The notes under the pieces: model-generated
What the model saw: only the letters and a program-made list of their open reading frames with translations
What the model was told of the DNA's origin: nothing
Databases searched by the model: none
Position numbers and translations under genes: made by a program
Shown here: one piece after another, positions 1-1,020 of the stretch
Numbering within the stretch: position 1 is the stretch's first letter
Layout of the letters: the number at the start of each line of letters is the position of its first letter
Sequence record: OR846541.1
Source: a phage
Length of the DNA stretch: 1,020 bases
Strand: one strand, 5' to 3'

Positions 1-551
1 GCCCTGCACTCTTCGACAGTCCAGCGATGGCGGTTATGGTTTGATTCGATTTCGTCTACCGCGGCCTGACCGATACGGTTAATAAGCTCGACGCGATACG
101 GAACGAGATTTCCGCTTTTGTGCTGGTTGCACACCACGCATTGCTTGTGAATATTGCGTTCATCAAATCGGAGTTGAGGTGCAGCAGCAGTTGTCCGGTA
201 ATGCCCGGCATCCCACTGAGCAGACGTGAGCGTTCCGCACGAGATACATGGTAAGTCGCGGTCTCTTTCTCTGATGAAGGCGTGTACGGCTTGTTGGGCT
301 TGTTTAATCCAGTAACTGCGGGGCTTTAAGGCGAGTTTTTGAATCTTAAGTTTATCTTTCTGTTTCTGCTCCTCTCGTCGTCGTTTCTTCTCTGCTGCTT
401 TTTCTGCTTTTTCGCGCTCTTTGCTTCGTCGTTCGAGTGCTATCTTGGTTCCACACTCTGGAGAGCACCACCACTGATTAGCGAATGCAGGGTGAAACCA
501 TTCCCGACATTCATCGTTTTTACATCGTCTTCGCGCTGGTTTAGCCATCAT
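1..551 (-). CDS. ninG: NinG / Rap recombination-associated structure-specific endonuclease, N-terminal 183 codons; 3' end lies beyond position 1
   Basis: Minus-strand frame opens with tandem ATG ATG at 546..551 and stays open to the window edge (183 codons plus 2 nt, no stop). Translation: [183 protein letters not shown]... This matches my recollection of lambda NinG (204 aa, begins [15 protein letters not shown]). GAGGA Shine-Dalgarno at 557..561, 5 nt upstream of the first ATG. Not in the supplied ORF track because it is edge-truncated. Confidence 0.92.
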
Positions 552-711
552 CTTTTTCCTCGTGCATCGAGCTATTCGAATCGCTCATCAGCTCTGCGCA
601 GCAGTGCTCACACACGTGAACTTCCAGCACATGCAGCTTCTGACCGCAGTTAGCGCACGTTAAAGCCCGCTCGACGCTTTCTTGTTCGTAACTTCGATTT
701 TGGTCAATCAC
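541..711 (-). CDS. ninF: NinF, small Cys-rich protein of unknown function (56 aa), GTG start
   Basis: Minus-strand frame from GTG 709..711 to TAA 541..543 (57 codons including stop). Translation: (V/M)[55 protein letters not shown]. Matches my recollection of lambda NinF in sequence, length (171 nt) and position between ninE and ninG. GAGGA at 719..723, 7 nt upstream of GTG. Missed by the ORF track because of the non-ATG start. Confidence 0.85.
557..561 (-). promoter_or_regulatory. Shine-Dalgarno (GAGGA) for ninG, embedded in the 3' end of ninF
   Basis: Minus-strand GAGGA followed by a 5-nt spacer and the first of two tandem ATGs (549..551). Confidence 0.55.
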
Positions 712-890
712 CTTGTTTTCCTCGCACGTTCTCTAAGCCACCTGATGTCCCACAGGTGAGCCGTGTAATTAAAGGTTTTTACGTCAGATTCTTTGGGGAT
801 TGGCTTGCGTTTATTTCTTGAGCGTTTCGTTGGAAGGTATTTGCAGTTTTCACAGATTATATCGGTGATACTTCGTCGCTGTCGTGCCAT
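708..890 (-). CDS. ninE: NinE, small basic protein of unknown function (60 aa)
   Basis: ORF given in the supplied track and confirmed by my translation: [60 protein letters not shown]. Matches my recollection of lambda NinE (60 aa, 183 nt). AGGAGG Shine-Dalgarno at 895..900, 4 nt upstream of ATG 888..890. Stop TGA 708..710 overlaps the ninF GTG start. Confidence 0.9.
719..723 (-). promoter_or_regulatory. Shine-Dalgarno (GAGGA) for ninF, embedded in the 3' end of ninE
   Basis: Minus-strand GAGGA followed by a 7-nt spacer and GTG at 709..711. Confidence 0.5.
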
Positions 891-894
891 ACGT

Positions 895-900
895 CCTCCT
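895..900 (-). promoter_or_regulatory. Shine-Dalgarno (AGGAGG) for ninE
   Basis: Minus-strand AGGAGG followed by a 4-nt spacer (ACGT) and ATG at 888..890. Confidence 0.6.
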
Positions 901-924
901 TCGTCTCTGGCCGCGGGAAATTAC

Positions 925-1020
925 CTACTGGCGACCGCTCACATCTGATACACCATTGGTGCCAATAAGGTTGATTTGGCCGGAATCGATAATCGTCTTT
1001 GCTTCATGCAACTCTCCCTG
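925..1020 (-). CDS. 3' end of an upstream ORF (C-terminal 31 codons plus TAG); product not identified, sits where ninD/ninC lie in lambda
   Basis: Minus-strand frame open from the window edge to TAG at 925..927: ...[31 protein letters not shown]. Ordinary codon usage, followed by a 34-nt spacer containing the ninE AGGAGG. I do not recognise the peptide. An alternative overlapping frame exists (see findings), so the call is tentative. Confidence 0.35.

Follow-up and report, generated by a model that had tools for sequence, protein, structure and literature searches.

A probable private frameshifting deletion directly after the ninD start codon in the nin region of a lambdoid phage

What precedes ninE in this phage? 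The window, by which we mean the whole 1,020-nt stretch analysed (record OR846541.1), offers two competing open frames upstream of this gene, both on the minus strand. Frame A (925..1020) is open from the window edge to a TAG at 925-927, with unremarkable codon usage. Frame B is open from 1003 to a TAA at 857-859. Its overlap with ninE, 34 nt, is that of lambda ninD with ninE (42090-42123), but the frame contains no ATG, GTG or TTG and is preceded by an in-frame TGA at 1004-1006. The first-pass annotation had read all of these features correctly, and had wavered between an absent or disrupted ninD and a different upstream gene, with a module boundary at 891-924. We find that disruption describes the locus best: judging from alignments, ninD has very probably been knocked out of frame by a 23-nt deletion just after its start codon, a reading to which we assign a probability of about 0.88. 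With the same high confidence, we regard ninD here as a known gene in a known arrangement that carries a private frameshifting deletion, in other words an ordinary inactivated accessory gene.

The window is the nin region of a lambdoid, P22-like phage or prophage and holds, on its minus strand (as do all window features described below), the 3′ end of ninB followed by ninD, ninE, ninF and ninG. The ninE gene (708..890, ATG at 888-890) is intact, encodes 60 aa and matches Pfam PF05322 (NinE) with 150.1 bits; the other ORFs match NinF (47 bits) and NinG (280 bits). The exact NinE protein is found on many contigs, and a NinD gene of 56–57 aa lies upstream of it in all ten places listed. The layout is that of the interlinked chain of nin genes (Kroger and Hobom 1982, cited in PMC10695390), with genes on the same strand, in the order ninB-(ninC)-ninD-ninE-ninF-ninG, and with overlapping stops and starts: ATGA at 1004-1007 for ninB/ninD, 34 nt for ninD/ninE, GTGA at 708-711 for ninE/ninF, and 8 nt at 541-548 for ninF/ninG. 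The last of these overlaps likewise measures 8 nt in phage BTP1 and 11 nt in lambda, a minor allelic difference at the ninG start.

Within this chain, Frame B (857..1003) occupies the place of ninD, directly upstream of ninE, and its TAA (857-859) lies beyond the ninE ATG, such that the first 34 nt of ninE overlap it. It comprises ninD codons 10-57 plus the stop codon and is 100% identical to ninD of the closest relative, L012 (contig AAICRQ010000001.1, assembly GCA_007494645.1). Both family profiles recognize the Frame B peptide as NinD: Pfam PF17466 with 114.5 bits (cut-off 35; E = 2.3e-33) and phrog_8091 with E = 8.7e-35. The Pfam match spans profile positions 10-56 of 57, whereas the intact NinD protein of L012 covers positions 1-56. 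What the window lacks, then, is a complete ninD ORF of ~57 codons with its own start: the ATG is out of frame and profile positions 1-9 are missing. Equally, ten out of ten intact NinD sequences carry the four cysteines C4, C7, C27 and C30 in the form CYRC ... C(I/L)RC, and the remnant keeps only CIRC. When ten distinct intact ninD genes are aligned, codon positions 1, 2 and 3 account for 14, 11 and 38 variable columns, a distribution that marks purifying selection acting on the frame of Frame B. Rare arginine codons had been held against this frame; the same codons occur in the intact ninD of L012, and they are therefore a property of ninD rather than evidence against Frame B.

Where does the gene break off? 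Direct alignment of the window with lambda, BTP1 and five NCBI contigs that carry its exact NinE protein revealed a single gap of 23 nt directly after the ninD ATG. All seven of these relatives retain the 23 nt, despite having four different upstream sequences between them. The junction lies at 1002..1005; its placement is ambiguous over 2 nt only (AA), and there is therefore no substantial direct repeat. The deleted bases, as present in L012, are AAACGATGTTACCGCTGCGGAGA; they span ninD codons 2-8, together with two bases of codon 9, and encode K-R-C-Y-R-C-G-E, including the first Cys-x-x-Cys. In the window the junction reads CATGAAGCAAAG, and the gap-free form is CATGAAACGATGTTACCGCTGCGGAGAAAGCAAAG. 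The start codon itself (ATG, 1005..1007) is preserved and overlaps the ninB stop as ATGA, within a GCATGA that is invariant in all relatives. Apart from the gap and position 819, L012 equals the window over 702-1020. The gap also explains why BLAST matches all end at window position 1004-1006. Collinearity of Frame B with a lambda-like ninD had been anticipated as a sign that the frame was misread; the collinearity, with lambda and with P22-like phages, is indeed there, and the frame had been read correctly.

The gene upstream of the deletion is very probably ninB, as judged from the 16 nt that the window holds beyond it (1005-1020). This segment, CAGGGAGAGTTGCATG, is identical to the 3′ end of P22-type ninB at 16 of 16 positions, and it yields the reading GRVA followed by a stop. 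The ninB 3′ ends of BTP1 and of contigs L004 and L012 are identical to the window, and their ORFs finish in ...EWSQRTGRVA*; the gene calls on both contigs carry PF05772 (NinB). In the window, the ninB 3′ end (1004..1020) reads ...GRVA with its stop TGA at 1004-1006, in Frame B. Since the TGA of P22-type ninB overlaps the ninD ATG as ATGA, the in-frame TGA that precedes Frame B is the ninB stop. The suspicion that the upstream gene differs from that of lambda was thus well founded, the neighbour being P22-type ninB and not ninC, but Frame A is not that gene.

What would this deletion mean for the phage? It would remove ninD codons 2-9, and with them two of the four conserved cysteines, those of the first Cys-x-x-Cys, and would shift the frame. 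Ribosomes entering at the ninD ATG would then make a 22-residue nonsense peptide and halt at the TGA at 939-941. The corresponding ORF (939..1007, 22 codons) corresponds to the +2 ninD frame of intact relatives, and had no match in Pfam or PHROG. Codons 10-57 would be left behind as an untranslated relic devoid of a start codon. Because 23 = 24 - 1, this relic falls into the ninB frame behind the ninB stop, hence the TGA at 1004-1006 in Frame B. As far as the sequence allows us to infer, ninD is a null allele here, with loss of function. The ninE gene, by comparison, is expected to be translated all the same, from a strong Shine-Dalgarno sequence of its own, AGGAGG at 895..900, which lies inside the ninD coding sequence and is invariant in all aligned relatives.

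Such a loss is likely tolerated, because nin genes are dispensable for plaque formation: ninD is among those listed as non-essential, and plaques still form after deletion of the whole nin region (PMC10695390). The four conserved cysteines of NinD presumably constitute a zinc-binding site. Searches for structural relatives returned only sub-threshold LIM and zinc-finger-like matches (E ≥ 0.025; Pfam LIM, E = 0.68), and neither these nor the Pfam searches turned up a solved NinD structure. In the literature we found NinD covered only by its non-essentiality (PMC10695390) and by unvalidated two-hybrid partners, namely Cro, K and Q (PMC3224144). The importance of the locus beyond annotation is therefore small, and it serves as a modest example of decay in a dispensable lambdoid accessory gene. 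Its correct annotation is a ninD pseudogene (23-nt frameshift) preceded by the ninB stop, rather than a novel ORF or an intergenic spacer. If the deletion is real, the phage carries a natural ninD-null allele with ninB and ninE intact, which might offer a ready-made mutant for addressing NinD function.

Is the deletion real? Alternatively, the gap might be a sequencing or assembly artefact, in which case the actual phage would possess an intact 57-codon ninD like that of L012. BLAST of 900-1020 did not recover the junction from phage records (where no match extends beyond window position 1005), complete E. coli genomes or PLSDB plasmids, and two exact patterns spanning it were absent from 185,579 species-representative genomes and from IMG/VR. 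The same two patterns gave a single match in JGI metagenomes and no genuine junction: this 21-nt match, at 3227-3247 of a metagenome contig (L022), sits inside an unrelated coding region and was discarded as chance. Found in none of the public collections searched, the junction is therefore either private to its source or an assembly error, and its absence from phage, E. coli, plasmid, species-representative, IMG/VR and JGI data fits a private mutation and an error equally well; the 100% identity of the remainder of 820-1020 to L012 would speak for an error. Private deletions are, on the other hand, common in dispensable prophage genes. Moreover, read or consensus errors do not typically take the form of a clean 23-nt loss in non-repetitive sequence with just 2 nt of microhomology, and for this reason we favour a real deletion as considerably likelier, and consider an artefact improbable.

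Setting the window, with its presumed deletion, against known phages helps to place the allele. P22-like Salmonella phages, among them P22, ST104 and BTP1, are close: window 5-1004 matches such phages, BTP1 for example, at 96%, and records of P22-like Salmonella phages are 99-100% identical to it over 900-1004. In these phages, as in the window, ninB and ninD join as ATGA, ninD and ninE overlap by 34 nt, and the Shine-Dalgarno sequence of ninE lies inside ninD; the difference is that the window is without the 23 nt after the ATG, and is thus frameshifted, with the N-terminal MK(R/H)CYRCGE and its first Cys-x-x-Cys gone. The BTP1 record LT714109.2 (our locus L002, 2204-2530) has its nin gene names shifted by one, with ninE called ninD, ninF called ninE and ninG called ninX, while the true, intact 57-codon ninD between ninB and ninE goes without annotation; in the RefSeq copy, NC_042346, the gene names are unchanged but the product names are correct.

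Lambda is more distant. Over window 1-1006, its match (lambda 41973-42979) reaches 92.8%, and the gene order ninD-ninE-ninF-ninG is the same. Lambda ninD (Nin 57, lambdap65, 41950-42123) is intact and its product belongs to PF17466, with the conserved Cys-x-x-Cys ... Cys-x-x-Cys. The gene upstream of it is ninC (PAPS-reductase family), and ninB is located further upstream still, whereas ninB abuts ninD directly in the window. The two ninD alleles have themselves diverged, nucleotide identity being ~58% in 901-960 and >90% elsewhere. A search for an identity breakpoint against lambda, as suggested by the first-pass annotation, hence does expose a steep fall from about position 900, but no junction at 891-924. 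The fall occurs because the ninD allele is of the P22/Salmonella type, and the alignments would have it as an older allelic divergence within ninD, with no change of gene.

Could Frame A nonetheless be the 3′ end of a genuine, non-lambda upstream gene, with 891-924 as the intergenic spacer where two modules of a mosaic meet? Three observations lend this proposal some appeal: the frame is open to the window edge with ordinary codon usage, identity to lambda drops sharply where the spacer would lie, and the upstream neighbour of ninD does vary among relatives, with two ninB alleles, ninC or an MT-A70 methylase found before the invariant GCATGA. Yet chance alone would yield 31 stop-free codons in a row about once in five (P ~0.21 from the base composition of the window), so that the openness of Frame A carries no weight. 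Past the deletion, Frame A is simply the +1 frame of ninD, closed on its 5′ side by the ninB or ninC stop in intact relatives, and without the deletion it would not continue through the junction. When the deletion was modelled on L012, BTP1 and L004, Frame A extended by just ~31 further codons, off-frame within ninB. Neither its peptide nor the modelled 62-residue extended version gave a convincing match in Pfam or PHROG (best E = 0.032, over a short stretch of the extension). Finally, the substitution periodicity described above follows the codons of Frame B and not those of a Frame A gene. Taken as a gene, Frame A is ruled out on these grounds (family matches, position off-frame in ninD and ninB, substitution pattern); it is an accidental open frame.

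The proposed spacer fares no better. Its length of 34 nt and its AGGAGG were correctly noted, but 891-924 is ninD coding sequence, lies inside the Pfam NinD match and holds the ninE Shine-Dalgarno sequence. Nor does identity to the nearest relatives break off here. L012 matches the window at 100% over the whole segment, with no mismatch over 820-1020 other than the gap; in BTP1, position 912 is the sole mismatch within 862-1020. A drop is seen only against lambda-type alleles. We therefore reject 891-924 as a module junction, and consider it exceedingly unlikely that Frame A and this segment represent a foreign gene and its spacer. By comparison of the relatives, the family-level junction sits instead at the ninD ATG, where the window appears to have its ordinary P22-type partner.

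With ninD most probably a frameshifted pseudogene, we find it barely conceivable that its remnant is still made, either by low-level read-through of the ninB UGA into a NinB-NinD′ fusion or by a +1 slip at AGA-CGA that takes ribosomes out of the frame of the ninD ATG and restores the NinD C-terminus, a way of expression that would be new for a nin protein: a single UGA does separate ninB from the remnant (...GRVA*SKDDYRF...), and the frameshifted ORF does open with ATG AAG CAA AGA CGA, featuring two rare arginine codons, but neither a read-through signal nor a slippery site was identified, a deletion has a one-in-three chance of creating such a frame relation, the remnant is without two of the four conserved cysteines, and the arrangement was seen in no other genome searched, so that nothing points to selection for it.

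The window is itself mosaic further downstream. An E. coli-type prophage contig (L013) equals it over 418-727, and L012 does so over 702-1020, save for position 819 and the deletion. To the left of ~676, L012 is unrelated, and L013 diverges to the right of 727. The interval shared by both, 702-727, thus makes the crossover coincide with the ninE/ninF boundary (708-711). In a widespread set of contigs that carry the exact NinF protein of the window (L013-L021), the homology stops at window position 885, two codons inside ninE, and oppositely oriented recT/exo-type genes, rather than ninD and ninB, precede ninE (at about 2822-2830 of these loci, equivalent to window 885-890). This suggests that, in those prophages, the start of ninE marks the junction of a large deletion or of a rearrangement.
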